Shown: piece by piece, positions 15,958 through 60,400 of the stretch
Layout of the letters: each line of letters starts with the position of its first letter
Position numbering within the stretch: position 1 is the stretch's first letter
Assembly (NCBI GenBank): GCA_963666735.1
Contig: OY762926.1
Coordinates: 406,734 to 470,733, forward strand
Source of the DNA: Gemmatimonadota bacterium
GTDB taxonomy: Bacteria; Gemmatimonadota; Gemmatimonadetes; Palauibacterales; Palauibacteraceae
Direction of reading: 5' to 3'
Length of the DNA stretch: 64,000 bases
The notes under the pieces: generated by a model
What the model was told of the DNA's origin: nothing
Seen by the model: only the letters and a program-made list of their open reading frames with translations
Databases searched by the model: none
Position numbers and translations under genes: made by a program

Positions 15958-16815
15958 ATGAATCCTCGCACGAACAACCTTGCCGGCGTGGACAACGTCA
16001 TCCCCCGTCCGGGGATGCTGGCCACCGTGCGGAAACGACGCGGCACAGTGACGTCGGTATCTCCGTTCGACGGCGAGACGGGACGGCTACACCTCGTTCA
16101 TCTCGAATACCGCGACGGCGGCTCACCGTCCGACGAGCGTCTGCTGTGGGAACTCGAGCCACGCAAGACCCTCCTTGAGCCGACCGCATTGCCGGACGCT
16201 TCCCGCTCCGATCCCATGCCTCCGGCCGATTTCGACGCTCTGCTACGGGCCGCGCGATGGACCGCGCTGTCGCCGTACCTGGGCCTTGACGGCAACGGTC
16301 GCGAGGAGGGCAAAGGGATAGGAGCTTTCCTTGCCCAGAACGGCGGCGAAGGCTGGTTGCTTCCCGAAACCCTTCGCTTGGCCGATTACGGACTGGGCCA
16401 TGACGACCGCGCTCAGCACCATCAGCCCGTCGCCAGCCGTCTCGGTCCACGATTCTGCGATTGGCAGCTCGCCCAGAGCGCCGAGGAGGATCGACGAGAG
16501 TGCCACCTGCATGCGCGCAACCTTCTGGGCCGGGTCGAGTACGTTCAGCTTCTCGGCCGGTTGGTCGGGCACCGCAGACGGCACGGACAGGGGCACCACG
16601 ATCTCCTCTTCAACGGGTTTACGCACGACTTGATCGGCGACACTTCGTCGATCGATGGCAAGGAGTTCGGCTACTCCGAGGCGGACCAGATTTTCGAGGA
16701 AGAAGGAGCGGCTCGGCGCGTCGCCGAAGCGGGTCCGGGCTACTCGACCGCGCCCTTCCGCAGGCCGGGTCAGACCGAGATGTTCCCAAGGTCTCAGACC
16801 GAGCCTCCCCTGTAG
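15958..16815 (+). CDS. Hypothetical protein (beta-rich N-terminal segment 'ATVRKRRGTVTSVSPFDGETGRLHLVHLEYRDG' faintly reminiscent of Tudor-like N-termini of RapA/SNF2-type proteins)
   Basis: Start 'MNPRTNN'; codon third-position GC is high throughout. Its stop is 11 nt upstream of the AlbA_2 gene (16827), which has its own RBS: an operon-like arrangement. Competing antisense ORF 16243-16626 not excluded. Confidence 0.4.
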   Translation: MNPRTNNLAGVDNVIPRPGMLATVRKRRGTVTSVSPFDGETGRLHLVHLEYRDGGSPSDERLLWELEPRKTLLEPTALPDASRSDPMPPADFDALLRAARWTALSPYLGLDGNGREEGKGIGAFLAQNGGEGWLLPETLRLADYGLGHDDRAQHHQPVASRLGPRFCDWQLAQSAEEDRRECHLHARNLLGRVEYVQLLGRLVGHRRRHGQGHHDLLFNGFTHDLIGDTSSIDGKEFGYSEADQIFEEEGAARRVAEAGPGYSTAPFRRPGQTEMFPRSQTEPPL

Positions 16816-16826
16816 AAGGCAGGACC

Positions 16827-18032
16827 ATGTTCGACACGCCCGACCAGATTTTGCGTCAGCTGAGAGCCGGAGAGGACAGCCGCGCCGAGTTCAAAGAACT
16901 CCGTTTCGGCGAACGAGGTGTGATCTCCCCGAACACGGAGGATTTGGCCGGGGAGATGGTGTCGTTCGCCAACGCGGAGGGCGGGACGATCTTCCTTGGC
17001 GTGGATGACGACGGGGACATCGTCGGCGTGCCTCGGGAGAAGTCGCAGCTCGTGGAGCAATGGGTGCTCAACGTCGCAACCCAGAACTGCGATCCGCCCC
17101 TCCGGCCGGAAGTCAGGCGGGAGGCCCTTCCGGTGCCGGGGGAGAACGGCCTGTCCATCATCCTAGTGACCGTTCCGCAGGGACTGTTTGCCCACTGTAC
17201 TGCCGGCGGCCGCTACTACGTCCGCCTCGGGTCGACCAAACGCCGTCTCACTCCCCCGGAGCTGGCCCGCCTGTTTCAGGAACGGGGCCGGGGGTATGTC
17301 TTCGACGAGCAGCAGGTCTTCTCCGGCGCGGTGGAGAATCTGGACTGGAACCGGTTGGAGGCGTTCTTCGGCCGCTCGCCGAGGATCCCATGGCTCGACC
17401 TCCTCCGGAATACGCGGGTGACCATCTGCGACCAAGGCGGCGTGGATCGGCCTACCGTTGCCGGGTTGCTCGCATTCTCGTCGGATCCGGCCGGTCTGTT
17501 GCCATCCGCGTACGTCGAGGCGGCCTGCTACGGCGGAACCCGCCTCTCATCGGATGATCTGGTGCATGCCGAGCGTCTCGCCGGTCCGGTCTCCGACCAG
17601 ATCGACGCAGGTATCGCCTTCGTCATGCACTTCATGAGCGCCGGACGTACGGCCGAGGGCATGGACGTGTACGACATCGATGTGGTAGACGAGGCCATCG
17701 TCAACGCCGTGGCCCACCGGGACTACTCCGTTTCGGGCTCGAAGATCCGCCTGTTCCTGTACGCCGACCGCTTGGAACTGTACAGCCCCGGCAAGCTGCC
17801 CAACGGACTGACGATCGAGGAGATGCCTTACCGCACCTTCACGCGCAACCAGCTTCTGGTCAGCTTTCTATCGAAGATGCGCAGCAAGCGCACCGGCCAG
17901 GTCTTCCTTGAGTCCCGAGGGGAAGGCGTGCGGAAGATCTTGGAGGACGGCGAGGCCCACGCAGGCCGCCGCCCGGAATACGAGCTGTTCGGAAACGAGC
18001 TCCGCCTGACCATTTGGGCGCTGAGGCGGTAG
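16827..18032 (+). CDS. Schlafen-like AlbA_2 (divergent AAA / AAA_4) + HATPase_c_4 (RecG-C-terminal-like) domain protein
   Basis: Trimmed to 'MFDTPDQILRQL' after RBS GAAGGCAGGA. 'AEFKELRFGE...VSFANAEGGTIFLGVDDDGDIVGV' (AlbA_2); 'DEAIVNAVAHRDYS...YADRLELYSPGKLPNGLTIEEM...RNQLLVSFLSKM' (HATPase_c_4). Confidence 0.7.
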   Translation: MFDTPDQILRQLRAGEDSRAEFKELRFGERGVISPNTEDLAGEMVSFANAEGGTIFLGVDDDGDIVGVPREKSQLVEQWVLNVATQNCDPPLRPEVRREALPVPGENGLSIILVTVPQGLFAHCTAGGRYYVRLGSTKRRLTPPELARLFQERGRGYVFDEQQVFSGAVENLDWNRLEAFFGRSPRIPWLDLLRNTRVTICDQGGVDRPTVAGLLAFSSDPAGLLPSAYVEAACYGGTRLSSDDLVHAERLAGPVSDQIDAGIAFVMHFMSAGRTAEGMDVYDIDVVDEAIVNAVAHRDYSVSGSKIRLFLYADRLELYSPGKLPNGLTIEEMPYRTFTRNQLLVSFLSKMRSKRTGQVFLESRGEGVRKILEDGEAHAGRRPEYELFGNELRLTIWALRR

Positions 18033-18192
18033 CCGTGGGCACGGCCGCCGTCAAGGCGAGAACGGTCACCGTTTGCGAAGGTCGACGCCGCAGCCGAGGC
18101 AGGGTCGGGGAAACGGGGTTTCGCGTGACGCTGAGATGTGGACGGGACGATTCCAGATCACCGGTTAGTATGATATGACAATCGGAGGCACG

Positions 18193-18645
18193 ATGGCGTT
18201 ACCGCAAATCAGCAAAGCCATCCGCAACGAGTTTCGAGAGGTTCTTAGCGGCCATTTTGTTCTGCGAGATATCAGCGACATCGTCACGGCTGCCGGTTTC
18301 TCGGATGACGTCACTTGGGAGGCGTGGGGCAATCGTCGCAAACTCGCTGAAGATTATTTCGCAACCCTGAACCTGGCGAGGCAACGCGATATCGCCATGC
18401 TATTGGCGGCCGTCAATAAAACAGCCGTTCGGTTAACGGCAGACGGTATCCCTGAGGGCATTAGCGATCTCATCCGACTGATGAGGGAGAATGGCTACAG
18501 CTACGAGGATGGTACCTTCACGGCAGTGCAGCAGCAGAAGGCGGTAACGGAGGAGCTAATGATGTGGTCATTGTCTACCTACAATTTCATTTGCTACGGT
18601 AGTCCCGATGCTCTCGTGTTTCGAGATGGAGTTGCCCCGCTTTGA
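18193..18645 (+). CDS. Hypothetical small protein in ~50% GC segment (probably horizontally acquired)
   Basis: GGAGGC RBS; 150 aa, no recognisable motifs. GC is about 20 points below the flanks. Its TGA stop coincides with the putative left end of the IS3 element. Confidence 0.5.
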   Translation: MALPQISKAIRNEFREVLSGHFVLRDISDIVTAAGFSDDVTWEAWGNRRKLAEDYFATLNLARQRDIAMLLAAVNKTAVRLTADGIPEGISDLIRLMRENGYSYEDGTFTAVQQQKAVTEELMMWSLSTYNFICYGSPDALVFRDGVAPL

Positions 18646-18684
18646 CGGACACCTATCCATTGGGGTCAAGCAAGGAGGTGTTCC

Positions 18685-18999
18685 ATGGCGGGCCGGAAGG
18701 GGCGGTATCCATCCGAGTACAGGGAGCGGCTGGTGGAACTGGTGAGGGGCGGGCGTAGTGCCGCGTCACTCGCCCGGAAGTTCGAGCCGTCGGAGCAGAC
18801 GATCCGGAACTGGGTCCGGCAGGCGGATGTGGACGAGGGGTTCCGTAGCGACGGGCTGACAACGGAGGCGCGCAGCGAGCTGCGGCGCCTGGAGCGGGAG
18901 AACAAGCGGCTCAGGATGGAGCGCGACATCCTAAAAAAAGCCGCGGCCTGGTTCGCGAGGGAGAGCGGATCGATCCCCGGCGGGGGTATGCGTTCATGA
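18685..18999 (+). CDS. IS3-family transposase OrfA (HTH/leucine zipper)
   Basis: 'GRYPSEYRERLVELVRGGRSAASLARKFEPSEQTIRNWVRQ' HTH; 'LRRLERENKRLRMERDILKKAAAWF' zipper plus frameshift window. Confidence 0.85.
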   Translation: MAGRKGRYPSEYRERLVELVRGGRSAASLARKFEPSEQTIRNWVRQADVDEGFRSDGLTTEARSELRRLERENKRLRMERDILKKAAAWFARESGSIPGGGMRS

Positions 19000-19844
19000 G
19001 GGCGCACCGGGCCGAGTTCCCGCTTCGGGCCATGTGCCGGGTGCTGGGTCTCTCCCCCAGCGGCTACTACGACTGGTTGAGGCGTCCTCCCTCGGACCGC
19101 GCGCGTCGGGACGCGGAACTGGAGGCGCGGATCGCGAAGATATGGACCGGCAGCGGCGAGACGTACGGCCGTCCGCGGATCCACGCGGCGCTCAGGGCCG
19201 AGGGCGAGCGGGTGGGGCAGAAGCGCGTGGGGCGGCTGATGAGGGGGCTGGAGATCGAGGGCGCGACCAGGCGGCGCTTCAAGACGGCGACGACGAAGAG
19301 GGATGCCGAGGCCCGCCCCGCGCCGGACCTGGTGGACCGTGACTTCTCGGCCTCGGGGCCCGACGAGCTGTGGGTGGCCGACATCACCTACGTCCCCACG
19401 TGGGCTGGCTGGCTGTATCTGGCCGTCGTGCTCGACGTCTGGAGCCGCCGCGTCGTCGGCTGGGCCATGGCGACGCACATGCGGACCGAGCTCGTCGAGA
19501 CCGCGCTGGCGATGGCTCTCGCAAGGCGTCGTCCCGAGGGTCGTGTCGTGCATCATTCCGACAGGGGCTCGCAGTACACCTCGCTCGCCTTCGGGGAGCG
19601 CTGCCGCGAGTCGGGCATCGCCCAGTCCATGGGCTCGGCGGGCGATGCGTACGACAACGCCATGTGCGAGAGCTTCTTCGCCACCCTCGAGTGCGAGCTG
19701 ATCTGGAAGCGCTCGTTCCGCACGGCGGACGAGGCGCGACGGGAGGTCTTCGGCTTCATCGAGGGCTTCTACAACACCCGGCGGCTGCACTCGGCACTCG
19801 GCTACGAGTCGCCGGCCGACTACGAGAGCAACCATGCGGCCTGA
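18996..19844 (+). CDS. IS3-family transposase OrfB (integrase-core DDE), translated via -1 frameshift from orfA
   Basis: 'LWVADITYVPTWAGWLYLAVVLDVWSRRVVGW' (D), 'HSDRGSQYTS' (D), 'GDAYDNAMCESFFATLECE' (E) rve-domain motifs. Confidence 0.85.
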   Translation: MRAHRAEFPLRAMCRVLGLSPSGYYDWLRRPPSDRARRDAELEARIAKIWTGSGETYGRPRIHAALRAEGERVGQKRVGRLMRGLEIEGATRRRFKTATTKRDAEARPAPDLVDRDFSASGPDELWVADITYVPTWAGWLYLAVVLDVWSRRVVGWAMATHMRTELVETALAMALARRRPEGRVVHHSDRGSQYTSLAFGERCRESGIAQSMGSAGDAYDNAMCESFFATLECELIWKRSFRTADEARREVFGFIEGFYNTRRLHSALGYESPADYESNHAA

Positions 19845-20883: not shown

Positions 20884-22401
20884 TTACGATATGGATGGCG
20901 AGGGTTGAGTCGTGCCGCCAGGCATGCGCAGCCGCTTGCCCTCGCTTTCGGCCTCGTCGGGATCCAGGAAGGCATGGCACGCTTCCAGCTCCCGTTCCGT
21001 CTCTCGAAGCGAGGTCCAGGCGACGGCAAGGGTCCACCGCTGGGCGTAGCTGAGCATGTCGATCAAAGGCTGGGGCCGGCGGTCGGTTCGGGACAGCGCA
21101 GGGAGTGCGGCGAGGTAGTTGTTTCGGTACGCGGTCGGGATGATGATTCGCTCCTCACCGGCTGCCACGAGCTCCGCATTCATCATCACGCGCGCGACGC
21201 GTCCGTTTCCGTCCGCGAAGGGATGCACCTCGGCCACGAGGAACATCATGTAGACCGCCCGGGCAAGAGGCGACTCGAGGCTGCGATACAGAGAGAAGCC
21301 TCGCTCCAGCGTCCCTGATACCAGATCGGGGAGGACGAAGTGGGTGCCGCCGGCCTTGTTCGCAGCGTCCTTGAACTCGCCGGGGCGCATTTCGGGACGC
21401 CCTGCCATGATACGCCGGTGGCGGCTTCGCAGGAGACTCGTAAGCTCCGCTGGATCCCTCGGTGTGCGCGTCATCTCCTGTGGATCGGAGACCAAACGCC
21501 ACGTTCCGATCACATCGCGAGCATCTGCGGGTCTGCGCTGTGGAATCTCGCCGTCGAAAACGATTCGCACGGCCTCGTCGACCAGGAACTCGGTGCCCTC
21601 GACGAAGTTCGAGAAGTATGCCTCGAAGAACGCCAGCGTGGCGCGGCCCTGCCCATCCCGGTGCGGTGCGGATCGTACGGTCGGAGGATGGTCGCGGAGC
21701 GCCCGATGCAGCTTGTGAAACAATTCCATGCGGTCGGGATCGTAGGCGTTCGCCCGGCTGCGGGCCCGCGCAAGCGGTGAATCGAGTTCACTGCGGCGGG
21801 TGCCGAGGAGAGTGCCGATGAGAGCGTCGAGGCGGGCCGCCTCCGTCTCCAGACCGAGTTCGGCGGCCACGGCGCGGGCCTCGTCCCGCAGCTGCTTGAC
21901 GGCCGGTTCGCCGGAGTGACGGATAAGGCGATCGAGTGCTTCCTCAATCTGAGCCTGGGGGAGCGTGCGTGGCACCCGGCCGCCCCGGGTCCGAGACGGG
22001 CGCAGGTTCTGCAGGTAGGCCCGGGTCCTCGAGCTGAGGTATAGTCCTTCGGCGAAGGGCATATCGGATGTGATCGGTCCGGAACCGCGTCTCGGACGGA
22101 GTACGATGCCCGGCAACTCGATGGTCCTGCCGCGCTCGCTGACGAGGCATACGGAGCCATCGGACGCGGGGGCCGCCTCGAAGGCCGTGCGGTCGGCGAC
22201 CAGGGCACCTGGAAAATACCCGGCGACGATCATCCACAGGTTGCGTTTCACGATCTCCCTGGGCGCATCCTCCAGGTTCTTCGTGTAGAGGCGGGACGCG
22301 AGCTTGCGCAGCGTCCCGGCCTTCACGGCCCGCGACACTTCACCGCTGATCGCCGTATGCGACACGAAGGCTTCGGGCAGTTCGTCCAGCGTGCGGTTCA
22401 T
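20884..22401 (-). CDS. Fic/Doc-family protein (Fido domain), long form
   Basis: Start trimmed to 'MNRTLDELPEAF'. Canonical Fic motif 'HPFADGNGRVARV'. About 505 aa with a long N-terminal region. Confidence 0.8.
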   Translation of the reverse strand: MNRTLDELPEAFVSHTAISGEVSRAVKAGTLRKLASRLYTKNLEDAPREIVKRNLWMIVAGYFPGALVADRTAFEAAPASDGSVCLVSERGRTIELPGIVLRPRRGSGPITSDMPFAEGLYLSSRTRAYLQNLRPSRTRGGRVPRTLPQAQIEEALDRLIRHSGEPAVKQLRDEARAVAAELGLETEAARLDALIGTLLGTRRSELDSPLARARSRANAYDPDRMELFHKLHRALRDHPPTVRSAPHRDGQGRATLAFFEAYFSNFVEGTEFLVDEAVRIVFDGEIPQRRPADARDVIGTWRLVSDPQEMTRTPRDPAELTSLLRSRHRRIMAGRPEMRPGEFKDAANKAGGTHFVLPDLVSGTLERGFSLYRSLESPLARAVYMMFLVAEVHPFADGNGRVARVMMNAELVAAGEERIIIPTAYRNNYLAALPALSRTDRRPQPLIDMLSYAQRWTLAVAWTSLRETERELEACHAFLDPDEAESEGKRLRMPGGTTQPSPSIS

Positions 22402-22445
22402 CGAATTTTTCCGAGGATAACGATAAGAGAATCGCGCAAAACGCA

Positions 22446-22484
22446 AATTATCTTAACATAAGGAGCCCGAAATGCGAAAAAAGT
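22446..22484 (+). repeat. 39-bp low-GC direct repeat copy 1 (left flank of the 22629-24650 cassette; Fic promoter region)
   Basis: 'AATTATCTTAACATAAGGAGCCCGAAATGCGAAAAAAGT' versus copy 2 at 24711-24749, 35/39 identical. Sits in a ~40% GC stretch within a ~70% GC genome. Confidence 0.75.
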
Positions 22485-25425: not shown

Positions 25426-26730
25426 TCAGGCGGGAATGCCGTGCTTCACCGCGTGGGTCATCGCGTCCACGAAGCGGTCCAGTTCCTCGATCGTCGTGTA
25501 GGTGGATGGGGAGATGCGAAGCCCCGTGAACTCGGCGTGGTTGATGCCGACCGTGAAGATCCGGTGCTTGTTCCACAGCCAGTTGCGGAGCGCGCTCGTG
25601 TCGATGCCCTCGACCTGGACGTTCGCGATCCCGCACGCGAAGCCCGGCTTGAGGCTCGTGTTGAGCCGCACGCGGTCGTACTCCAGGAGCTGGTCCGCCC
25701 AGTAGTTCCGGAGGTGGACGAGGCGGGCTTCCTTGCGCTCGCCGCCGACCAGCTGGTGGAAGGTGAGCGCCTCGCCGATGGCGAGGAAGTTGGCCTCGGG
25801 GTGCGTGCCGATCGCCTCGAACTTCCGGATGTCGTCGTCGCTGCTCTCGGCGGCGGCCTGCAGCGGCCAGACCTCCGGGATCTTCTCCCGCCTCACGTAG
25901 AGGAGGCCCGTACCGACTGGGGCGTGAAGCCACTTGTGCAGGCTCACCGCGTAGTTGTCACAGTTGAGATCGGAGAAGGTAAAGTCATGGTGCGCCATGG
26001 AATGTGCGCCATCGACGATGACCGGGATGTCGTAGCCGCGCGCCATCTCCACGACTTCGCGCACGGGGAGGATCTGCCCTGTGATGTTGATCATGTGGCA
26101 CATGAGGATGAGCCGCGTGCGGTCGGTGATCTGCTCCTCGAACAGGCGCACGATCTCGGCCGGATCCTCGGCGGGAATCGGGATCTTGAACTGCTTGAGG
26201 ACGATCCCCTCGCGCCGCTCGCGCTGCTTGAAGGTCGTGATCATGCGCCCGTAATCCTGCGTCGTCGTCACCACTTCGTCGCCGCGCTCGAGGTCGTATC
26301 CGTTCTGGAGGATCTGGAGACCCTCCGACGCGTTGCGCGTGATCGCGACCTCCTCCGGGTCCACGTCCCACTGGCGGGCGAGCCGGGCGCGGACGCCCTC
26401 CCGCTGCGGCTCCAGGATCTGCCACCCGTTGTAGACCGGGATCTGGTTCGCGAAGTCGAGATCCCGCTTCATTGCCTCGAGCACGTGGGCGGGCGTCGGG
26501 CTCACGCCCCCGTTGTTGAGGTTGACGAGGGAACGGTCGGTGGTGAACGCCTTCTGTATCTCGAGCCAGAATTCCTCGTCGCGCGCGATCTCCCCGGGGG
26601 AGCCGGGGGTGCGGGACAAGTCACGGGCCGCCGCCATGGCGGTGTTCCACTTCGTGGGCACGGCGGTCATGACTCCGGCTGCTGCGGCGGAGCCCCCGAG
26701 GCGGGCGAGGAATCGTCGTCGGGTGGGCAT
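25426..26730 (-). CDS. Class V aminotransferase-fold PLP enzyme (isopenicillin-N-epimerase / cysteine-desulfurase-like) with twin-arginine (TAT) signal
   Basis: Start trimmed to 'MPTRRRFLARLGGSAAAAGVMTAV' (RRxFL TAT motif). 'VIVDGAHSMAHHD...SLHKWL' PLP-lysine region typical of class V. Confidence 0.7.
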   Translation of the reverse strand: MPTRRRFLARLGGSAAAAGVMTAVPTKWNTAMAAARDLSRTPGSPGEIARDEEFWLEIQKAFTTDRSLVNLNNGGVSPTPAHVLEAMKRDLDFANQIPVYNGWQILEPQREGVRARLARQWDVDPEEVAITRNASEGLQILQNGYDLERGDEVVTTTQDYGRMITTFKQRERREGIVLKQFKIPIPAEDPAEIVRLFEEQITDRTRLILMCHMINITGQILPVREVVEMARGYDIPVIVDGAHSMAHHDFTFSDLNCDNYAVSLHKWLHAPVGTGLLYVRREKIPEVWPLQAAAESSDDDIRKFEAIGTHPEANFLAIGEALTFHQLVGGERKEARLVHLRNYWADQLLEYDRVRLNTSLKPGFACGIANVQVEGIDTSALRNWLWNKHRIFTVGINHAEFTGLRISPSTYTTIEELDRFVDAMTHAVKHGIPA

Positions 26731-26832
26731 GCGGCCTCCTGGCTGGTTCGATACCGGTCCGTCTACTGCCAAATAGACCGTTTTCGAAGCCGCGAGCAAG
26801 TCTGGCGCCCGCTGCCTCCTGGGTGCGACAGG

Positions 26833-27414
26833 TCAGCCCGTTGCCGTGATCATGGCCAGGATCGGTTCGATCGCGGCCTCCGCCAGTTCCTCGAGTTCGC
26901 GGGCCGTGCGGTTCTGGATCGGGTGCGGGATCCAGACGATGGCGGGCTCGAAGCCGAGCGAGCGCGACTGGCTGCGCGCGGCCTGCTCGAACTCGGTCGT
27001 GACGACGAAGCAGCCGGGGATCCCACGTTCATCGAGGTCTCTGAGGTCGTGCAGACCGCACGACGTGCAGGACCCTCAATCGGCTAATGCCTGCACCACC
27101 ACGTCGGCTTCCGTGGCGATCCTCTGCAGCAACTCGGTCGGCGCCCGCCGCGCGTTGGTCGGCTTGTCGGTGCGGATCGTCTCGACGCCGAGCGCGTCCA
27201 GGCGCGTCTTCACGTGGTCGAGGAACTCGTCGCTGCGCAGCTTGCCAATCCCCTGCAGCGCCACCACTCGACCCTCCAGCGACGGGGGCGGCGCACGCCG
27301 CGGACGCATCTCCGGGGCGAGTTCGGAGGTGGGATCGTGAAGGATCGTCGTTGGGGTGGCGGGGGTCGCCGGAGTCGCGGGGGCCGCCGGAGTCGCCGGG
27401 GTCGGAGCCGTCAT
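26833..27414 (-). CDS. UGSC-family selenoprotein (in-frame UGA = Sec at 27078..27076), 193 aa
   Basis: ATG (27414..27412) overlaps the upstream stop (ATGA). Translation reads '...EADVVVQALAD-U-GSCTSCGLHDLRDLDERGIPGCFVVTTEFEQ...ILAMITATG*'. The TGA sits in a 'U-G-S-C' motif; a further 80 sense codons follow before the stop at 26835..26833; SECIS-like hairpin 11 nt downstream. The track ORF 27076-28578 is an artefact stopping at the Sec codon. Confidence 0.7.
27046..27064 (-). other. SECIS-like hairpin (bacterial selenocysteine insertion element) downstream of in-frame UGA
   Basis: mRNA 5'-GUCGUGC-GGUCU-GCACGAC-3': perfect 7-bp stem, GGUCU apical loop (resembles the fdhF SECIS loop, from memory), begins 11 nt after the UGA. 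Confidence 0.6.
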
Positions 27415-28862
27415 GTCTCGATCTCTCTGGTGATGGGGTGTGAGTGCCGCCAGGCGCGGCCGCCGGGCCAGCCGGCCAGGATCGCGGAGTACAGCCCGGC
27501 CGCGCCGCCGGCCCGGGCGAGGAGCAGTCCGCCGGGCGGGAACTTGGGCACCTGGCGGCGCGTCTCCGAGTCCGGCACGCCTTCGGCCAGGCCTCCCGCG
27601 CCGCGCGCGACCTTGCTCAACGGCCGCGTCGTCGCCTCCAGCAGCGCTTCGGTGATCCGCGCCCGGCACCAGCCGGCTTCCCGGTAGATGGCGTGGTGCT
27701 CGGGCGAGAGGAGCAGCACGGCGTGCGCCCACTCGCAGATCTTCGGGTGGCAGACGGCCAGCAGGCACGCGGCGAGCGACGCGGTCAGTTCTTCGGGCGT
27801 TCGGGAGCGCTGGTCCATGATCCCCTGCACGCCCTCGCCCTGGAAGAGGGTGACGGCGCTGGCCCCGCGCGGGATGCCGCGTGACACGGAGAGCGGCTCC
27901 CACTCCTCGTCCGATTCGTCCTCCGCGAAACAGAACGTGTACTTGCTGGGCGCCCCGAAGGTCGAGCGGTCGATCTCGCCCGGGCGTCCGCCGCCGACGT
28001 TGCGCACGATGAGGTTGAGCGCCCGTCCGATGGTCGCGTTGGCACGGTTCCCCTGCCCGAGGACGTTGAGCCCCGAGTTCATCCCGATGCGGCGCGCGAT
28101 GGGACCGTTCACGATGGCGAGGGGCGCCGTGAAGCAGGTGCTGCACAGGATCCCGTGCAGCGTGAAGTCGGGGTCGAGCGCCGCCTCGAGCGCCGCGAGC
28201 ACGACCGGCATGTACTCCGGCTTGCACCCCGCGAGCACGGCGTTGATCGCCACTTTCTCCACGGTGCACTCGGCGTAGTCCGGCGGTACCGCGCCCACGA
28301 CATCGTCGGGAGCCCGGGACGTGCCCGTGAGCATGCGCAGAGTCCGCTCCGGCGTCGGCGGGACGACGGGCAGCCCGTCCGTCCACCCGCGCTCGAAGCA
28401 CGCTTCCGCGGCGTCCGCGTGCGGATCCAGAGCCACCTGCCTCGCCGCGAGGCCCGTTTCGCCGAAACGCGCGCGCAGTCGCTCCGCGGCGCCGGGTTCG
28501 ACGGACCGGGAGCCGCAGCCCGGCTGGAACTCGGGCAGTTCCGCGCCCAGATCCGGAGTTGACGTCAGGTCGCGCCATTTCGCCCGGTTCCAGCCCACCG
28601 CGCGCCCCGTCTCATTTCCACCATCGAAGCGCACGAGCGTGGGGACCGTCTCGATCCCGAGCCGGAACGAGTGCTCGAGTTGCGTGTCGTCGACGACGCC
28701 GGAAAGCGCGGCGGGGAAGTCCGGGTCGTCCTGGCTCAAGATGGCGAGACCGTCGCGGCCATCGGCGAGCCGCCCCAGTACGGGTTCGACGAGTTGGCAG
28801 GTGGGGCAGTCCCGCTTGACGACGACCACGAGACCGTCCGCCGGGAGCGGAGCGTGTTCCAT
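27411..28862 (-). CDS. Thioredoxin-like (CPTC) N-terminal domain protein with large uncharacterised C-terminal domain; first gene of the UGSC-selenoprotein operon
   Basis: 483 aa; N-terminal 'VVVVKRDCPTCQLVEPVL' thioredoxin-fold CxxC; its stop overlaps the selenoprotein start. Confidence 0.6.
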   Translation of the reverse strand: MEHAPLPADGLVVVVKRDCPTCQLVEPVLGRLADGRDGLAILSQDDPDFPAALSGVVDDTQLEHSFRLGIETVPTLVRFDGGNETGRAVGWNRAKWRDLTSTPDLGAELPEFQPGCGSRSVEPGAAERLRARFGETGLAARQVALDPHADAAEACFERGWTDGLPVVPPTPERTLRMLTGTSRAPDDVVGAVPPDYAECTVEKVAINAVLAGCKPEYMPVVLAALEAALDPDFTLHGILCSTCFTAPLAIVNGPIARRIGMNSGLNVLGQGNRANATIGRALNLIVRNVGGGRPGEIDRSTFGAPSKYTFCFAEDESDEEWEPLSVSRGIPRGASAVTLFQGEGVQGIMDQRSRTPEELTASLAACLLAVCHPKICEWAHAVLLLSPEHHAIYREAGWCRARITEALLEATTRPLSKVARGAGGLAEGVPDSETRRQVPKFPPGGLLLARAGGAAGLYSAILAGWPGGRAWRHSHPITREIET

Positions 28863-28991
28863 GTCCCAACCGTAACCCGCCCGTCCCGTCCGTCCAAGCC
28901 GGCCCCCGCGCTCCGATGGATGGCGGGGGGCGCGCGTTCATGCGAATCGTGACGCTTGACAATTCAGTGACCAGTCATCAAATCTGGTCAT

Positions 28992-29231
28992 ATGGAGACG
29001 ATCAACGCTTCCGATTTCAAGGCCAGGTGTCTCGCGATCCTTGACCGGGTGCGCGATACGGGTGAACGGGTCGTCATCCTGAAACGCGGCCGGCCGGTCG
29101 CGGAACTCGTGCCGCCGAGCCATTCCGTCTCCGAGTTCCCGCAGGAGGAGTTGAAGGGGACCGTTACCGTCCACGCCGACATCGTCGGACCGGCGATTCC
29201 CGAGGAGCACTGGGAGAGCCTCCGGAAGTGA
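28992..29231 (+). CDS. Phd/YefM-family type II antitoxin
   Basis: 79 aa; 'METINASDFKARCLAILDRVRDTGERVVILKRGRPVAELVP'. Confidence 0.8.
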   Translation: METINASDFKARCLAILDRVRDTGERVVILKRGRPVAELVPPSHSVSEFPQEELKGTVTVHADIVGPAIPEEHWESLRK

Positions 29232-29626
29232 CGCCGATGCTCGACACGCACATTCTGATCTGGTGGTTCGAGCAGGCGGGTCGCCTCTCCGCGGCCCAAC
29301 GGGAGATCATCGAAGCGGCGGACGGCAACCCTCCCCTGATCCTCTCCGACATCTCGCTCCTGGAAATCGCGACGCTGTGCGGTCTCGGCCGGATCCGGCT
29401 GTCGATCCCGCTGCGCGACTGGCTGGAGAAGGCCGTGGCCCCTCCGCTGGTGCGGCGACAGGGGATCTCTCCGGCCATCGCTTCGGAGATCGCGGCCCTG
29501 CCGGATTCGTTCCACCGGGATCCCGCGGACCGGACGATCGTCGCGACGGCCAGGGCCCTGGGCGCAACCCTTCTGACTCAGGATCGCCGCATCATCGAGT
29601 CCGGATTGGTCCAAGCCATCGGATAG
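29228..29626 (+). CDS. vapC: PIN-domain toxin VapC
   Basis: GTG start overlapping the antitoxin stop (GTGA); 'LDTHILIW', 'DISLLEIA', 'DPADRTIVATARALGATLLTQDRRI' PIN acidic-residue pattern. Confidence 0.8.
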   Translation: MTPMLDTHILIWWFEQAGRLSAAQREIIEAADGNPPLILSDISLLEIATLCGLGRIRLSIPLRDWLEKAVAPPLVRRQGISPAIASEIAALPDSFHRDPADRTIVATARALGATLLTQDRRIIESGLVQAIG

Positions 29627-57470: not shown

Positions 57471-60400
57471 ATGAGCGTTCCCGGACCCTCAGGAGACCGG
57501 CCGGGCCTCCTGCACGGACTGTTGGACCGGCTCGTCCATGCCTCGCTGGAGAACCGCTTTCTCGCCGTGGCCGCCGGGATCCTTCTCCTGGGGGGCGGGG
57601 GATGGGTGGGGGCCACGCTGCCCGTCGACGTCTTTCCCGACCTCACCGCTCCCACGGTGACGGTGCTCAGCGACGCTCACGGGTTGGCCCCGGAAGAGGT
57701 CGAGAGTCTCGTCACCTTCCCGATCGAAACAGCGGTGAACGGCGCGGCCGGCGTGCGCCGGGTCCGGTCGAGTTCGGCTCAGGGGATCAGCATCGTCTGG
57801 GTGGATTTCGACTGGGGGACGGACATCCTCCGCGCCCGGCAGGTCGTGAACGAGCGGCTTCAACTCGCCGCGGCCCAACTGCCCGACGACGTGAGCGCGC
57901 CTGTCCTCGCGCCCGTGAGTTCGATCATGGGGGAGATCCTGCTCGTCGGCATGACCGCGCCCGCCCCGCGACTCATGGAGGCGCGGACGGCCGCCGACTG
58001 GACCGTCCGGCGAAGATTGCTTGCCGTGCCCGGGGTGTCGCAGGTGGTCTCGATCGGCGGTCAGGTGCGCCAGTACCAGATCCTGATCCACCCCGAGCGC
58101 CTGCTCGCATACGGCGTCGGGCTCGACCAGGTGCTGGAGGCGGCGGCGGGGTCGAACCGGAACGCGTCCGGAGGCGTCTATCGTTCGGGCGGGCGCGAGA
58201 TCCTGATCCGCGGCATCGGCCGCGCGCGCGACCTCGAGGAGATCGGCCTGACCGTCGTCGCCGTCAGGGAGGAAGTACCGGTCCTCATCGAGGACCTGGC
58301 CGAAGTACGAATCGGTCCGCGCGTCCGGCTCGGGACCGCTTCCGTGAACGCGGAGCCCGCGGTCGTCCTATCGATCCAGAAACAGCCCGGTGCCAACACG
58401 CTGGAGCTGACGGAGCGGATCGACGCCGAACTGAACGAGATCGAGGCGGAACTTCCGACGGGCGTGGCCTTCGAGAGGGCCGTGTTCCGACAGGCCGATT
58501 TCATATCGCTCGCCGTGGAAAACGTGATCGACGCCCTGCGCGACGGCGCGTTGCTCGTCATCGCGGTGCTCCTGCTTTTTCTGTGGAACCTCAGGACGAC
58601 GGCGATTTCCGTGCTCGCGATCCCGCTCTCGCTGGCCCTGGCCGTCATCGTGCTGCGGCTCCTCGGGGGCACGATCAACACGATGACGCTAGGCGGCATG
58701 GCCATCGCGATCGGCGCGCTGGTCGATGACGCGATCATCGTGGTCGAGAACGTGCACCGCCGCCTGCGCGAAGACCGCCGCCGCCCGCCGGAGCGCCGGC
58801 GACGGCCGCTGACGCTCGTCCGGGATGCGGCCCGGGAGATCCGGAACCCGATCCTGAGCGCGACCCTCATCATCTCCATCGTCTTCGTCCCGCTCTTCTT
58901 CCTGTCCGGCGTGGAAGGGCGCATGCTCCGGCCGCTGGGACTGGCCTACATCGTGAGCATCCTCTCATCACTGCTCGTCGCCGTCACGGTCACGCCGGCC
59001 CTCTGCCACATGCTCATGCCGGGAGATCGCGCGATCTCCCGCCCGCGCGAGCCGTGGCTGATGCGTGGGCTCGAACGGGCGTACGGGCGCGTCCTCGACG
59101 GGGCGCTTCGGCGTTCCGGGGCCGTGCTTGGCGGAGCGGCGCTCCTGCTTCTCGGCACTCTGGCTCTCGTGCCCTCGCTGGGACGCGGATTCCTGCCCGA
59201 GTTCCAGGAGGGGACGCTGACCATCTCCGTCGTGAGTCTGCCCGGGACGTCGTTGGTGGAGTCCGACGCGATCGGGGCCCGCGTGGAGCGCCAACTCCTG
59301 GCCCACCCCGCCGTCGTCTCCACCTCGCGGCGGACCGGCCGGGCCGAACTGGACGAGCACGCCCAGGGCGCGAACGCCTCCGAGGTCGACGCGCGGCTGG
59401 ACCTTTCGGAGCACGGCATCGAGGAGGTCATGGCCGCGCTCCGCGACGACCTGGCGGGGCTCCCCGGGACGAACGTCACGATCGGGCAGCCGATCGGCCA
59501 CCGGATCGATCACATGCTCTCGGGCACGCGGGCGGCCATCGCGGCCAACCTGTTCGGGCCCGATCTCCGGCAACTGCGGGACATCGCCGCGGAGATCGAG
59601 ACCGTGGCGGGGACGGTGGAGGGTCTGGTGGATGTATCCGTAGAGAGGCAGGCGGACATCCCCCAGCTTCAGATCCGCGCCGACCGCCGCGCGATGGCCC
59701 GTCACGGCGTCACGCCGGCGGCGATGGCGGTGGCCGTGGATGTCGCGTTTCAGGGGGAGGAGGTGTCGCTCATCCGGGAAGGGGACCGCGCCTTCGACCT
59801 CGTGGTTCGCTACGCCGACGAACACCGAACGGATCCCGAGGCGATCGGCGGCACGCTGATGACGACGCCGGCGGGCGCTACCGTGCCGCTGTCGCAACTC
59901 GCTTCGATCGTGCCGTCTTTGGGCCCGAACGCGATCAGCCGCGAGAACGTGCAACGGAAGATCGTCGTGAGCGCGAACGTTGCGGGGCGCGACGTGGGCG
60001 GAGCCGCGGAGGAGCTAGAGGAGCGGGTCGCCGCGGAGGTCCAACTGCCGCCGGGCTACTACGTCCGGTACGGGGGGCAGTTCGAGAGCGGGCGGGAGGC
60101 GACGCGGCGCATCACGCTGCTCTCGCTGTTCTCGATCGCCGCCATCTTCCTCATCATGTTCCGAGCTTTCGGGAGCGCCCGGATCGCGGCCCTTCTCATG
60201 GTGAACCTGCCCCTGGCGCTGGCGGGAGGCGTGCTCGCGGTGCTGCTCATCGGCGGCACCGTGAACATCGCGACGCTGGTCGGGTTCATCACGCTGTTCG
60301 GCATCGCGGTGCGCAACGGGATCCTTCTCGTGAGCCGCTATCAGGATCTGCGGGCGGCGGGCGCCGAGCTCGGCCCGAGCATCCGGCGCGGCTCCCTGGA

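Follow-up and report, generated by a model that had tools for sequence, protein, structure and literature searches.

The window, by which the whole 64-kb stretch of Gemmatimonadota DNA analysed here is meant, contains a minus-strand gene with an in-frame TGA that very probably encodes a selenoprotein of the UGSC family. This gene lies between an upstream partner gene and a downstream gene for a class V aminotransferase-fold protein (Table 1). A sequence-only reading had placed the TGA within the motif A-L-A-D-U-G-S-C at 27078..27076 of the minus strand, and these coordinates were verified. The frame past the TGA is open for exactly 80 sense codons up to a TGA stop at 26835..26833, which gives a total of 193 residues counting U. 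The start codon (ATG, 27414..27412) shares the tetranucleotide ATGA with the stop (TGA, 27413..27411) of the 483-aa open reading frame upstream (27411..28862), as that reading had also described, and is common to homologues P0001-P0009. The 500-aa open reading frame called at 27076..28578 proved to be the artefact that it had been taken for, as its first ~388 residues read the real 483-aa gene out of frame. The recoded TGA stands in the context ...V-V-V-Q-A-L-A-D-TGA-G-S-C-T-S-C. The Ala/Pro/Thr-rich N-terminal extension of the protein varies in length among close relatives. A scan of the window for other in-frame TGAs with coding-like flanks found no second selenoprotein candidate; the one other site with a hairpin (59512) is antisense to an AcrB gene.

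Table 1. Features of the UGSC locus (positions in the window)
Feature	Position	Strand	Evidence
Complete gene of the probable UGSC-family selenoprotein, 193 residues including U113, plus stop codon	26833..27414	-	translation, Pfam PF24696, NCBIfam NF041046
In-frame UGA, codon 113, motif U-G-S-C, probably read as selenocysteine	27076..27078	-	TGA/Cys codons in orthologues
80 sense codons 3' of the UGA, encoding the C-terminal half of the UGSC domain with the invariant H-P (PHP motif)	26836..27075	-	dN/dS, invariant columns
Low-complexity Ala/Pro/Thr-rich N-terminal extension, outside the Pfam domain	27340..27414	-	
ATGA overlap of UGSC gene start and partner gene stop (probable translational coupling)	27411..27414	-	
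Partner gene, 483 aa; N-terminal thioredoxin domain (about 28563..28835) with C19-P-T-C22; large C-terminal domain (about 27414..28535)	27411..28862	-	
Downstream class V (PLP) aminotransferase-fold gene, twin-arginine-like N-terminus	25426..26730	-	Pfam PF00266, E 1.7e-39
Upper stem-loop of the candidate SECIS, 7-bp stem GUCGUGC/GCACGAC, apical loop GGUCU (27053..27057), encodes T-S-C-G-L-H-D	27046..27064	-	
Extended, weaker lower stem, including the UGA itself	27033..27078	-	MFE and centroid fold

After substitution of C for U, the sequence matches the Pfam family UGSC (PF24696) with 115.7 bits against a gathering cut-off of 25, and residues 26-190 align with model positions 3-171 of 172 continuously across the TGA. 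The NCBIfam model NF041046, 'UGSC family (seleno)protein', aligns its positions 2-146 of 147 with residues 48-189 and scores 119.7 bits (E 1e-34), 5 bits below its curated equivalog cut-off of 125 bits. The family assignment of the sequence-only reading therefore stands by the Pfam model and falls just short by the NCBIfam model, a miss that may help to explain why NCBI leaves these proteins unnamed. The residues D112-U113-G114-S115-C116, D123, T139, F142, G154 and H164-P165 fall in columns that are invariant, or nearly so, among diverse Cys forms, and the residue pattern by which the family was judged (U/C-G-S-C in place, D before U/C, HD, T, F, G and PHP) is present. As descriptions of the UGSC family date back to about 2005-2008, the gene is an additional example of a known family, a fresh and mis-annotated member from Palauibacterales. 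It shares with the family the same domain and the U-G-S-C motif at the same position, and differs from it in the lower NF041046 score, in the lineage-specific N-terminal extension and in its public records, which for Palauibacterales (Gemmatimonadota) hold only truncated 'hypothetical proteins'.

Codon 113 was compared with the orthologous codon in 80 GTDB species loci (L012-L091), a biased sample of related genomes spanning about six phyla. The codon is TGA in 71 of them and TGC or TGT in the other nine. The excess of Sec over Cys forms in this sample agrees with the GOS data, where 255 Sec forms stand against 21 Cys forms (PMC2398784). TGA forms were found in Gemmatimonadota, Alpha- and Betaproteobacteria, Acidobacteriota, Acidimicrobiales and Chthoniobacterales, and TGA occupies codon 113 in all independent Palauibacterales assemblies examined. 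Complete Palauibacter chromosomes with the TGA form include NZ_OZ253465.1, NZ_OZ244907.1, NZ_OZ250143.1 and NZ_CBDBNY010000004.1. The alignment with Cys homologues that had been proposed as a check gave the expected result: besides the nine genomic orthologues, the protein library holds full-length homologues (P0136, with ...LSD-C-GSCTSC..., and others) that carry Cys opposite U and bear the NCBI name 'UGSC family (seleno)protein'. One base change would suffice to convert a Cys codon (TGC/TGT) into TGA, by mutation in a pseudogene or by a miscall in an assembly. The recurrence of TGA in 71/80 species-level genomes and in every Palauibacterales assembly, together with coding sequence that is intact and under selection on both sides, effectively refutes this explanation on comparative grounds, and its probability is negligible.

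Purifying selection acts on the codons that follow the TGA. The dN/dS ratio within Palauibacterales is 0.076 before the TGA and 0.21 after it, and rises to about 1.1 beyond the true stop; none of the 82 TGA-bearing loci has an in-frame stop within 76 codons after the TGA. The sequence-only reading had named a lack of downstream conservation as one of the results that would overturn it, and conservation was found. Alternation of TGA with Cys codons among orthologues and coding-type conservation 3' of the TGA, the general marks of a selenoprotein gene, are both present. These data also bear on the possibility that the TGA is a genuine stop, with a 112-residue N-terminal fragment as the product and the downstream 80 codons either untranslated or a separate small gene. 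Such a stop would fit the public gene calls for Gemmatimonadota homologues, all of which end at ...ALAD, and the second open reading frame called after the TGA in other genomes; open frames past stops are also common in GC-rich DNA, since 41% of the stops after a long open reading frame in this window are followed by at least 80 more open codons. The bare features, an open frame and a hairpin, are weak alone, and the case goes beyond chance through the Pfam domain match running across the TGA and the comparative evidence. A genuine stop would divide a single Pfam domain that in Cys homologues is part of one uninterrupted protein, and would sever a catalytic-looking motif exactly at its first residue. 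It would also leave unexplained the same-frame purifying selection in the stop-free downstream codons, and the 'second open reading frames' begin at arbitrary internal codons (query positions 8-25). A genuine stop is accordingly considered very improbable.

The perfect hairpin GUCGUGC-GGUCU-GCACGAC reported from the sequence alone was located at 27064..27046, exactly 11 nt past the UGA. The hairpin alone has a folding energy of -10.5 kcal/mol, the z-score of the 66-nt fold is a modest -1.65, and a perfect 7-bp hairpin 8-14 nt after a TGA triplet occurs at 8 of 1187 TGAs. Every TGA form keeps the hairpin (alignment of 66 distinct 54-nt rows), and G23 and U24 of the loop are invariant in the 66 sequences, with the lower-stem pairs conserved only partly. 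Paired stem cells number 450/455 in TGA forms versus 48/63 (76%) in Cys forms. The 7-bp stem shows two double-sided compensatory changes, each in a single sequence; the evidence for the stem is thus mostly conservation, and covariation is sparse. The synonymous entropy of codons +4 to +10 is 0-0.73 bit, whereas codons on either side of them in the same sequences have 1-2.4 bits. In TGA forms, Asp+10 is encoded by GAC in 73/73 sequences, whereas Asp-1 is encoded by GAC in 36 and by GAT in 37 (Fisher 3e-14); among Cys forms, five use GAC for Asp+10 and four GAT. TGA forms encode T-S-C-(G/S)-L-H-D, whereas Cys forms carry T-S-C-S-T-H-D and have no hairpin. This pattern indicates an RNA-level constraint beyond the protein sequence, confined to the hairpin and to the TGA forms. 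Alternatively, the hairpin could follow from conservation of the peptide T-S-C-G-L-H-D alone or serve some general regulatory purpose, in either case with no SECIS function, as might be suggested by the high conservation of the peptide, the 76% of stem cells still paired in Cys forms by coding chance, the sparse covariation and the weak z-score. This explanation appears extremely improbable, because the synonymous sites are nearly frozen only in TGA forms and neighbouring ones vary freely, because Cys forms swap Leu for Thr and lose the hairpin, and because the spacing and loop sequence match those of fdhF.

A bacterial SECIS is a stem-loop directly 3' of the UGA, at a suitable distance within the limits used by bSECISearch and with G and U in the apical loop. 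The spacing and apical G/U of SelB-dependent bacterial elements are found here, with a spacer of 11 nt and a loop (GGUCU) starting 18 nt after the UGA. The resemblance to the E. coli fdhF SECIS, which the sequence-only reading had pointed out, was borne out when the sequence was read from E. coli K-12: in both genes the 9-mer GGUCUGCAC fills nt 19-27 after the UGA, and thereby places G23 and U24 in the apical loop of both. The fdhF element (Rfam RF01988, SECIS_2) is the prototype SelB-binding element; in both genes the stem-loop begins 11 nt after the UGA and lies inside the coding sequence. The two differ in that the UGSC stem is a perfect 7 bp without the bulged U17 of the E. coli-type upper stem, and in that its loop has 5 nt rather than 4 nt. 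Recognition by SECIS models, which the sequence-only reading had proposed as a check, was not obtained. Rfam SECIS families have no match in the window at gathering thresholds, and in a scan of 26800-27450 at E<=10 neither SECIS_2/3 nor any other Rfam family matches the hairpin. The E. coli fdhF control matches SECIS_2 at 87 bits, which shows that the Rfam models function and that their specificity is for FDH-type elements. When the 66 UGSC SECIS sequences were themselves made into a covariance model, it gave no further element in the window and missed fdhF. By analogy, the UGSC hairpin would be fdhF-like in its working and outside that Rfam family. The locus illustrates cleanly how a SECIS can shape the encoded protein, with Leu in Sec forms and Thr in Cys forms.

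None of the genes selA, selB, selD and tRNA-Sec was found within the 64-kb window by ARAGORN or by tblastn with the Xanthobacter SelA, SelB and SelD proteins. Support for the Sec-decoding trait in this lineage is indirect: one SelA, one SelB and one SelD have been listed for each of two sponge Gemmatimonadetes bins (PMC5649159, Table S4). The Palauibacterales genome paper leaves selenium genes unmentioned. The lack of sel genes and tRNA-Sec in the window and of an Rfam SECIS match would be compatible with a UGA that is read through without selenocysteine, for example by a near-cognate tRNA for Trp or Cys with stimulation by the hairpin, in a genome without SelA and SelB. The codon alternates only with Cys codons, however, as expected for Sec, and the apical G-U stands in the same register as in a proven SelB-binding SECIS. 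In Xanthobacter sp. 126 the two-gene UGSC module adjoins selD-selB-selA. Ordinary genes in the window, including the UGSC gene and its neighbour, terminate at TGA, and TGA is therefore not generally reassigned. Read-through with another amino acid is rated as very improbable.

Taken as a whole, the region is read, with a probability of about 90%, as one UGSC-family selenoprotein gene that gene finders cut in two because codon 113 is UGA. The claim that the gene is unannotated was confirmed in public collections, where the Gemmatimonadota homologues are 93-121-aa proteins ending in ...ALAD and named 'hypothetical protein'. A translation start at ATG 27414, coupled through the ATGA overlap to the upstream gene, is well supported. 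At UGA 27078..27076 the hairpin 11 nt downstream in the mRNA would act as a bacterial SECIS, and, following the established SelB mechanism, SelB-GTP with Sec-tRNA(Sec) would bind the apical G-U and selenocysteine would be inserted. The ribosome would then continue for 80 codons to the TGA at 26835..26833.

The tightly conserved partner gene is the part of interest at this locus, the UGSC gene itself being ordinary. A homologue of about 480 aa lies immediately upstream of the UGSC gene in most related loci, a pairing that holds across phyla. The 4-nt ATGA overlap also recurs across phyla in the gene calls of loci L001-L007, L011, L093 and L094, and translational coupling of the UGSC gene to its partner is well supported by these sequences, which suggest that it operates here. 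The C-terminal domain of the partner has more than 8000 homologues, with about 60% identity across phyla, but it belongs to no Pfam family and has no fold in the PDB that matches with confidence; the 483-aa protein itself, looked up as an exact sequence, returned no database record. The UGSC domain is joined to the partner's C-terminal domain (41% identity, E 5e-62) in the natural fusion P0210, and P0187 is a fusion in the reverse order. 'UGSC/Unknown_1' fusion proteins are given in Fig. S1A of the GOS selenoproteome paper (PMC2398784); they resemble P0210 in that UGSC is fused to a conserved domain. The aminotransferase gene belongs to the cassette only in Palauibacterales, and the neighbourhood is conserved only in Gemmatimonadota loci.

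The UGSC protein is predicted to fold as one alpha/beta domain of flavodoxin/Rossmann-like type, in which U113-G-S-C116 lies where strand 3 ends and helix 3 begins. This prediction is drawn from the AF2 model of the Cys homologue P0136 (pLDDT 87.6, five beta-alpha units). A PDB sequence search with the UGSC profile gave nothing meaningful. A thioredoxin fold, the guess made for UGSC proteins in the literature, was not borne out by structural similarity, the predicted fold being flavodoxin/Rossmann-like.

The near-obligatory coupled pairing, the natural fusions and the predicted non-thioredoxin fold lead to a testable two-subunit selenoenzyme hypothesis. The UGSC protein and the upstream 483-aa protein may make up a two-gene module with the former as redox subunit. 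U113 and C116 would cycle via a selenenylsulfide, electrons would pass between this U-x-x-C centre and the partner's thioredoxin domain (C19-x-x-C22), and the substrate would bind to the partner's C-terminal domain. This arrangement loosely recalls selenoprotein B of glycine and proline reductases. Like GrdB, GrdF, GrdH and PrdB of the glycine, sarcosine, betaine and D-proline reductases, the UGSC protein has a U-x-x-C motif (PMC2398784, Table 2); a second protein is required in both systems, and both are linked to thioredoxin-type reduction, as proposed here for the UGSC side. The UGSC protein is unlike them in its size (about 190 aa versus about 430 aa), and the 483-aa partner has no GrdE/PrdA-type match in Pfam. 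Three UGSC Sec forms give weak, consistent matches to four related NCBIfam models at model positions of about 320-405 (E 2e-4 to 0.1), with scores far under the thresholds (TIGR01917, 17.5 versus 602 bits; TIGR01918, 11.3 versus 65). Pfam GRDB (PF07355) was not matched, and a profile search for a bridge to GrdB/PrdB returned only PF24696 proteins and no GRDB protein. The relation to GrdB may thus serve as a lead, short of demonstrated homology. The UGSC selenoprotein and the upstream 'thioredoxin family protein' of about 480 aa could tentatively, at somewhat less than even odds, form a widespread two-component selenoenzyme, with a GrdB-like U-x-x-C on a flavodoxin-like subunit that is recycled by the thioredoxin domain, and a C-terminal domain that performs a probably reductive reaction.

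Palauibacterales is a cosmopolitan marine and sponge-associated order, and UGSC proteins rank among the most abundant selenoproteins of aquatic metagenomes. The UGSC gene is mis-called in the Palauibacterales assemblies examined, and its product scores just under the NCBI cut-off; counts of selenoproteins in this order are too low as a result. It would follow from the gene that UGA is decoded as selenocysteine in Palauibacterales. If the two-component selenoenzyme is real, it would be present in Gemmatimonadota, Alpha- and Betaproteobacteria, Acidobacteriota, Actinobacteriota, Verrucomicrobiota and Bacteroidota-like genomes.

The UGSC gene lies on the minus strand exactly as the sequence-only reading had placed it, and all of the proposed coordinates were borne out. 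The start codon (ATG 27414..27412) shares an ATGA with the stop codon (27413..27411) of the upstream 483-codon open reading frame. Codon 113 is TGA (27078..27076) in the context V-V-V-Q-A-L-A-D-TGA-G-S-C-T-S-C, and exactly 80 sense codons remain open after it, followed by the stop TGA 26835..26833. The product comprises 193 residues, including the recoded position. A "500-aa ORF" (27076..28578) is indeed a six-frame artefact: the N-terminal half of the UGSC gene supplies its last 112 residues, and the first ~388 come from an Arg/Ala/Gly-rich out-of-frame read over the real upstream gene. Residues 1-25 of the UGSC product (27340-27414, minus strand), MTAPTPATPAAPATPATPATPTT, form a low-complexity Ala/Pro/Thr tract that short GC-rich repeats encode. 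The length of this tract differs among close relatives (truncated calls of 106-121 aa), and the window has one PATPAT unit more than the database protein P0001.

Profile searches were carried out using the 193-residue product with U replaced by C. Membership in the UGSC family was confirmed by a match to Pfam PF24696 "UGSC family" (115.7 bits; cut-off 25), which is a single alignment over residues 26-190 and therefore spans the TGA. The NCBIfam model NF041046 "UGSC family (seleno)protein" matched with an E-value of 1e-34 and 119.7 bits, 5 below its curated cut-off of 125. UGSC-containing proteins have figured among the selenoprotein families of unknown function ever since the analyses of the Sargasso Sea, an Olavius symbiont and GOS, and are among the most abundant selenoproteins of aquatic metagenomes (PMC2398784, PMC1976440), with 255 Sec and 21 Cys forms in GOS (PMC2398784). 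A 2016 survey recorded them in 26 genomes (PMC5029168), and reviews of 2022 and 2026 still call them uncharacterised (PMC9312934, PMC13188914). Because this family has long been listed, and models of it are present in both Pfam and NCBIfam, the gene is a mis-annotated addition to a known family and no novel element type.

The closest database proteins, all from Gemmatimonadota (84-94% identity), have the Met start in common and end in ...ALAD at 106-121 residues; those that are named are "hypothetical protein". Automated gene callers thus cut them short at the TGA, and the gene is unannotated in public calls, as had been suggested. At the DNA level, nine such loci share the TGA and the 80-codon extension after it, whose protein sequence is near-identical. 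The nearest named relatives of the window are Candidatus Palauibacter species, and the contig L001 (4.13 Mb) shows 94-97% DNA identity to it.

The bare features, an open frame and a hairpin, are unconvincing by themselves. In this GC-rich window, at least 80 further open codons follow 41% of the stops ending long ORFs, a perfect 7-bp hairpin lies 8-14 nt downstream of 8 of the 1187 TGA triplets, and the 66-nt fold has a z-score of only -1.65. No further selenoprotein candidates were found in the window by a scan of in-frame TGAs. The only other TGA with open GC3-rich flanks and a perfect 7-bp hairpin (59510-59512, minus strand; hairpin 13 nt downstream) was rejected as a shadow-frame false positive because it is antisense to an AcrB-family gene.

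Eighty loci (L012-L091) were obtained from a scan of one genome per GTDB species. The codon orthologous to codon 113 is TGA in 71 and TGC/TGT in 9 of them, a ratio that is a biased estimate since the loci were retrieved with peptide patterns. The TGA forms occur in Gemmatimonadota, Alpha- and Betaproteobacteria, Acidobacteriota, Acidimicrobiales and Chthoniobacterales, and the Cys forms in, for example, Sphingosinicella, Cyclobacteriaceae and Ekhidna. When the C-terminal 80 residues were used as the query of an exhaustive HMMER search, full-length Cys-containing homologues, such as P0136 (...LSD-C-GSCTSCSTHDL...), were recovered. This search also returned many "second-half" ORFs of 60-110 residues, which are the remaining debris of mis-called Sec forms. 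Homologues ending at ALAD with no conservation beyond it had been named as evidence against a selenoprotein; the result favours read-through, with stops within the 76 codons after the TGA in 0/82 TGA-bearing loci tested and a dN/dS of 0.21 downstream of the TGA, compared with 0.076 upstream and about 1.1 in the same frame past the real stop (18 Palauibacterales sequences). These values indicate that the region downstream of the TGA is translated.

The perfect hairpin GUCGUGC-GGUCU-GCACGAC begins 11 nt past the TGA, as the sequence-only reading had reported, and has a folding energy of -10.5 kcal/mol on its own. The sequence ACG-UCG-UGC-(G/A)GU-(C/U)UG-CA(C/U)-GAC is kept by all TGA forms. The alignment of these forms comprised 66 distinct 54-nt rows. 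The seven stem pairs are formed in 450/455 cells of the TGA forms, whereas only 48/63 are formed in the nine Cys forms. The lower stem, UGA included, is conserved in part only, and true covariation is sparse (two double-sided changes, G-C to A-U and C-G to U-A, in one sequence each). The decisive signal for the predicted SECIS comes from synonymous sites. The synonymous entropy of the TGA forms is 0-0.73 bit at codons +4 to +10, whereas the flanking codons in these sequences have 1-2.4 bits. Asp+10 is GAC in 73/73 TGA forms, whereas Asp-1 is GAC in 36 and GAT in 37 (Fisher 3e-14); in the Cys forms, Asp+10 is GAC in 5 and GAT in 4. The peptide reads T-S-C-S-T-H-D in Cys forms and T-S-C-(G/S)-L-H-D in Sec forms. 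Since position +8 after the U/C codon is always Leu (CUG/UUG) in Sec forms and Thr in Cys forms (L012-L091), the SECIS loop and 3' stem appear to fix one amino acid of the Sec-form protein. Among the same loci, loss of Sec goes with loss of the hairpin and the peptide change.

In E. coli K-12 fdhF, the TGA is followed by 11 nt and then by GGUUGCA-GGUC-UGCACC. The proposed resemblance to this SECIS holds: both genes have the 9-mer GGUCUGCAC at nt 19-27 after the UGA. Because the register is the same, G23 and U24 (U of UGA = 1), the bases contacted by SelB, lie within the apical loop of both. The bulged U17 of fdhF is absent from the window element. The latter matched no Rfam family at E<=10; the fdhF control matched RF01988 SECIS_2 with 87 bits. 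With a covariance model built from UGSC elements, this was the sole site detected in the window, and E. coli fdhF was not detected. The UGSC element is predicted to work like the fdhF SECIS, outside that Rfam family. Overall, the selenoprotein interpretation is supported by the Pfam match and the comparative data, and the probability that this is a true Sec-encoding UGSC gene whose SECIS functions is put at about 0.9.

The selenocysteine machinery is the weakest point of this case and accounts for most of the remaining doubt. No tRNA genes and no SelA, SelB or SelD homologues were found in the 64-kb window. Support for its presence is indirect. According to a published COG table, two sponge-associated Gemmatimonadetes bins each contain one SelA, one SelB and one SelD (PMC5649159 Table S4); no link between these bins and Palauibacterales was found. 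In Xanthobacter sp. 126, and likewise at locus L033, the two-gene UGSC module directly adjoins selD-selB-selA. At these loci (L010 1164-6182; L033), selD, selB, selA and a small CMD (AhpD-like) gene are divergent beside the partner-UGSC pair and form a selenium "island" with it. AhpD-like proteins are a known selenoprotein family. TGA is evidently not generally reassigned in this genome, because the UGSC gene and its neighbour both end at TGA.

Several other features surround the operon. The class V aminotransferase-fold gene 3' of the UGSC gene joins the pair only in Palauibacterales, where its identity is 93-98%. Its product begins MPTRRRFLARLGGSAAAAG..., a twin-arginine export signal look-alike that is unusual among class V PLP enzymes, and shows a weak SepSecS match (E 0.008); a role in Se/S amino-acid chemistry would be pure speculation. 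A toxin-antitoxin pair occupies the promoter region of the selenoprotein operon, flanked by the partner gene on one side and the divergent amidohydrolase genes on the other, and a counterpart of about 0.5 kb of this region (28968-29479) is absent from the closest relative, L001. The amidohydrolase trio is conserved in L001 and not in the Palauibacterales loci L002-L007. Compared with L001 12990-18890, the 673-aa ORF corresponds to the C-terminal third of a 1966-aa DEAD/Helicase_C-MZB-S24 protein, and the window lacks about 4 kb that code for the helicase part in L001. Beside this deletion lies a mobile-element or defence-like patch (16461-19844).

Positions of the UGSC operon and neighbouring features in the window
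Feature	Position	Strand	Match
Schlafen/AlbA_2 + HATPase_c_4 protein	16461-18032	+	
IS3-type transposase, HTH_21 + rve domains	18996-19844	+	
Fic gene, directly adjoining 673-aa remnant	20884-22446	-	
MrfA-Zn-binding + Peptidase_S24 ORF, 673 aa	22629-24650	+	
Class V aminotransferase-fold gene	25426-26730	-	
UGSC gene	26833-27414	-	
Hairpin	27046-27064	-	
Partner gene	27411-28862	-	
Phd/YefM antitoxin + PIN-domain toxin pair (type II)	28992-29626	+	
Phd/YefM antitoxin, 79 aa			PF02604, E 2.5e-12
PIN-domain toxin, 132 aa			PF01850, E 9e-14
Three consecutive overlapping amidohydrolase-family genes, 605/474/474 aa	29692-34351	+	
AcrB-family gene, 1059 aa	57471-60650	+	PF00873, 880 bits

The family of the partner gene is very large and shows strong conservation; all 8000 scored candidates had E<=0.001. 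The 483-aa protein shows about 64% identity to Xanthobacter and Burkholderiales proteins; its homologues all lack precomputed Pfam domains and, where named, are "thioredoxin family protein". The AF2 model (pLDDT 86.2) consists of two parts. The C-terminal domain (residues about 110-483) is covered by no Pfam or NCBIfam model, and the PDB gave no confident match. This ~370-residue domain contains many invariant Cys, Gly, Pro and Arg residues (partner homologues P0010-P0129). A partner homologue is located immediately 5' of the UGSC gene in most related loci, Sec and Cys forms alike, and Gemmatimonadota, Burkholderiales and Bacteroidota-like contigs share the 4-nt ATGA overlap. Some genomes carry the pair on its own, amid unrelated genes. 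A natural fusion, P0210, joins a UGSC domain (C-G-N-C) to the partner C-domain (41% identity over about 300 residues, E 5e-62), and in another, P0187, the domain order is opposite. Fusions of this type are probably the "UGSC/Unknown_1 fusion" of PMC2398784.

Three Sec forms match four NCBIfam models of selenoprotein B of the glycine/sarcosine/betaine/proline reductases weakly and consistently (E 2e-4 to 0.1; model positions about 320-405), and selenoprotein B carries U-x-x-C too (PMC2398784 Table 2). Pfam GRDB did not match the UGSC proteins, and a profile search for this link returned only UGSC proteins. The putative likeness to selenoprotein B is a lead.

Beyond the published descriptions consulted, the family gains a near-obligatory translationally coupled partner, a predicted fold for the UGSC protein, and a putative SECIS that is frozen across about six phyla and appears to impose Leu on the protein. 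We infer a mechanism in which U113 and C116 would cycle via a selenenylsulfide, the thioredoxin domain of the partner would trade electrons with this centre, and the partner C-domain would provide the substrate site of a probably reductive reaction. The UGSC protein and its partner may, as a tentative proposal, constitute a two-component selenoenzyme.
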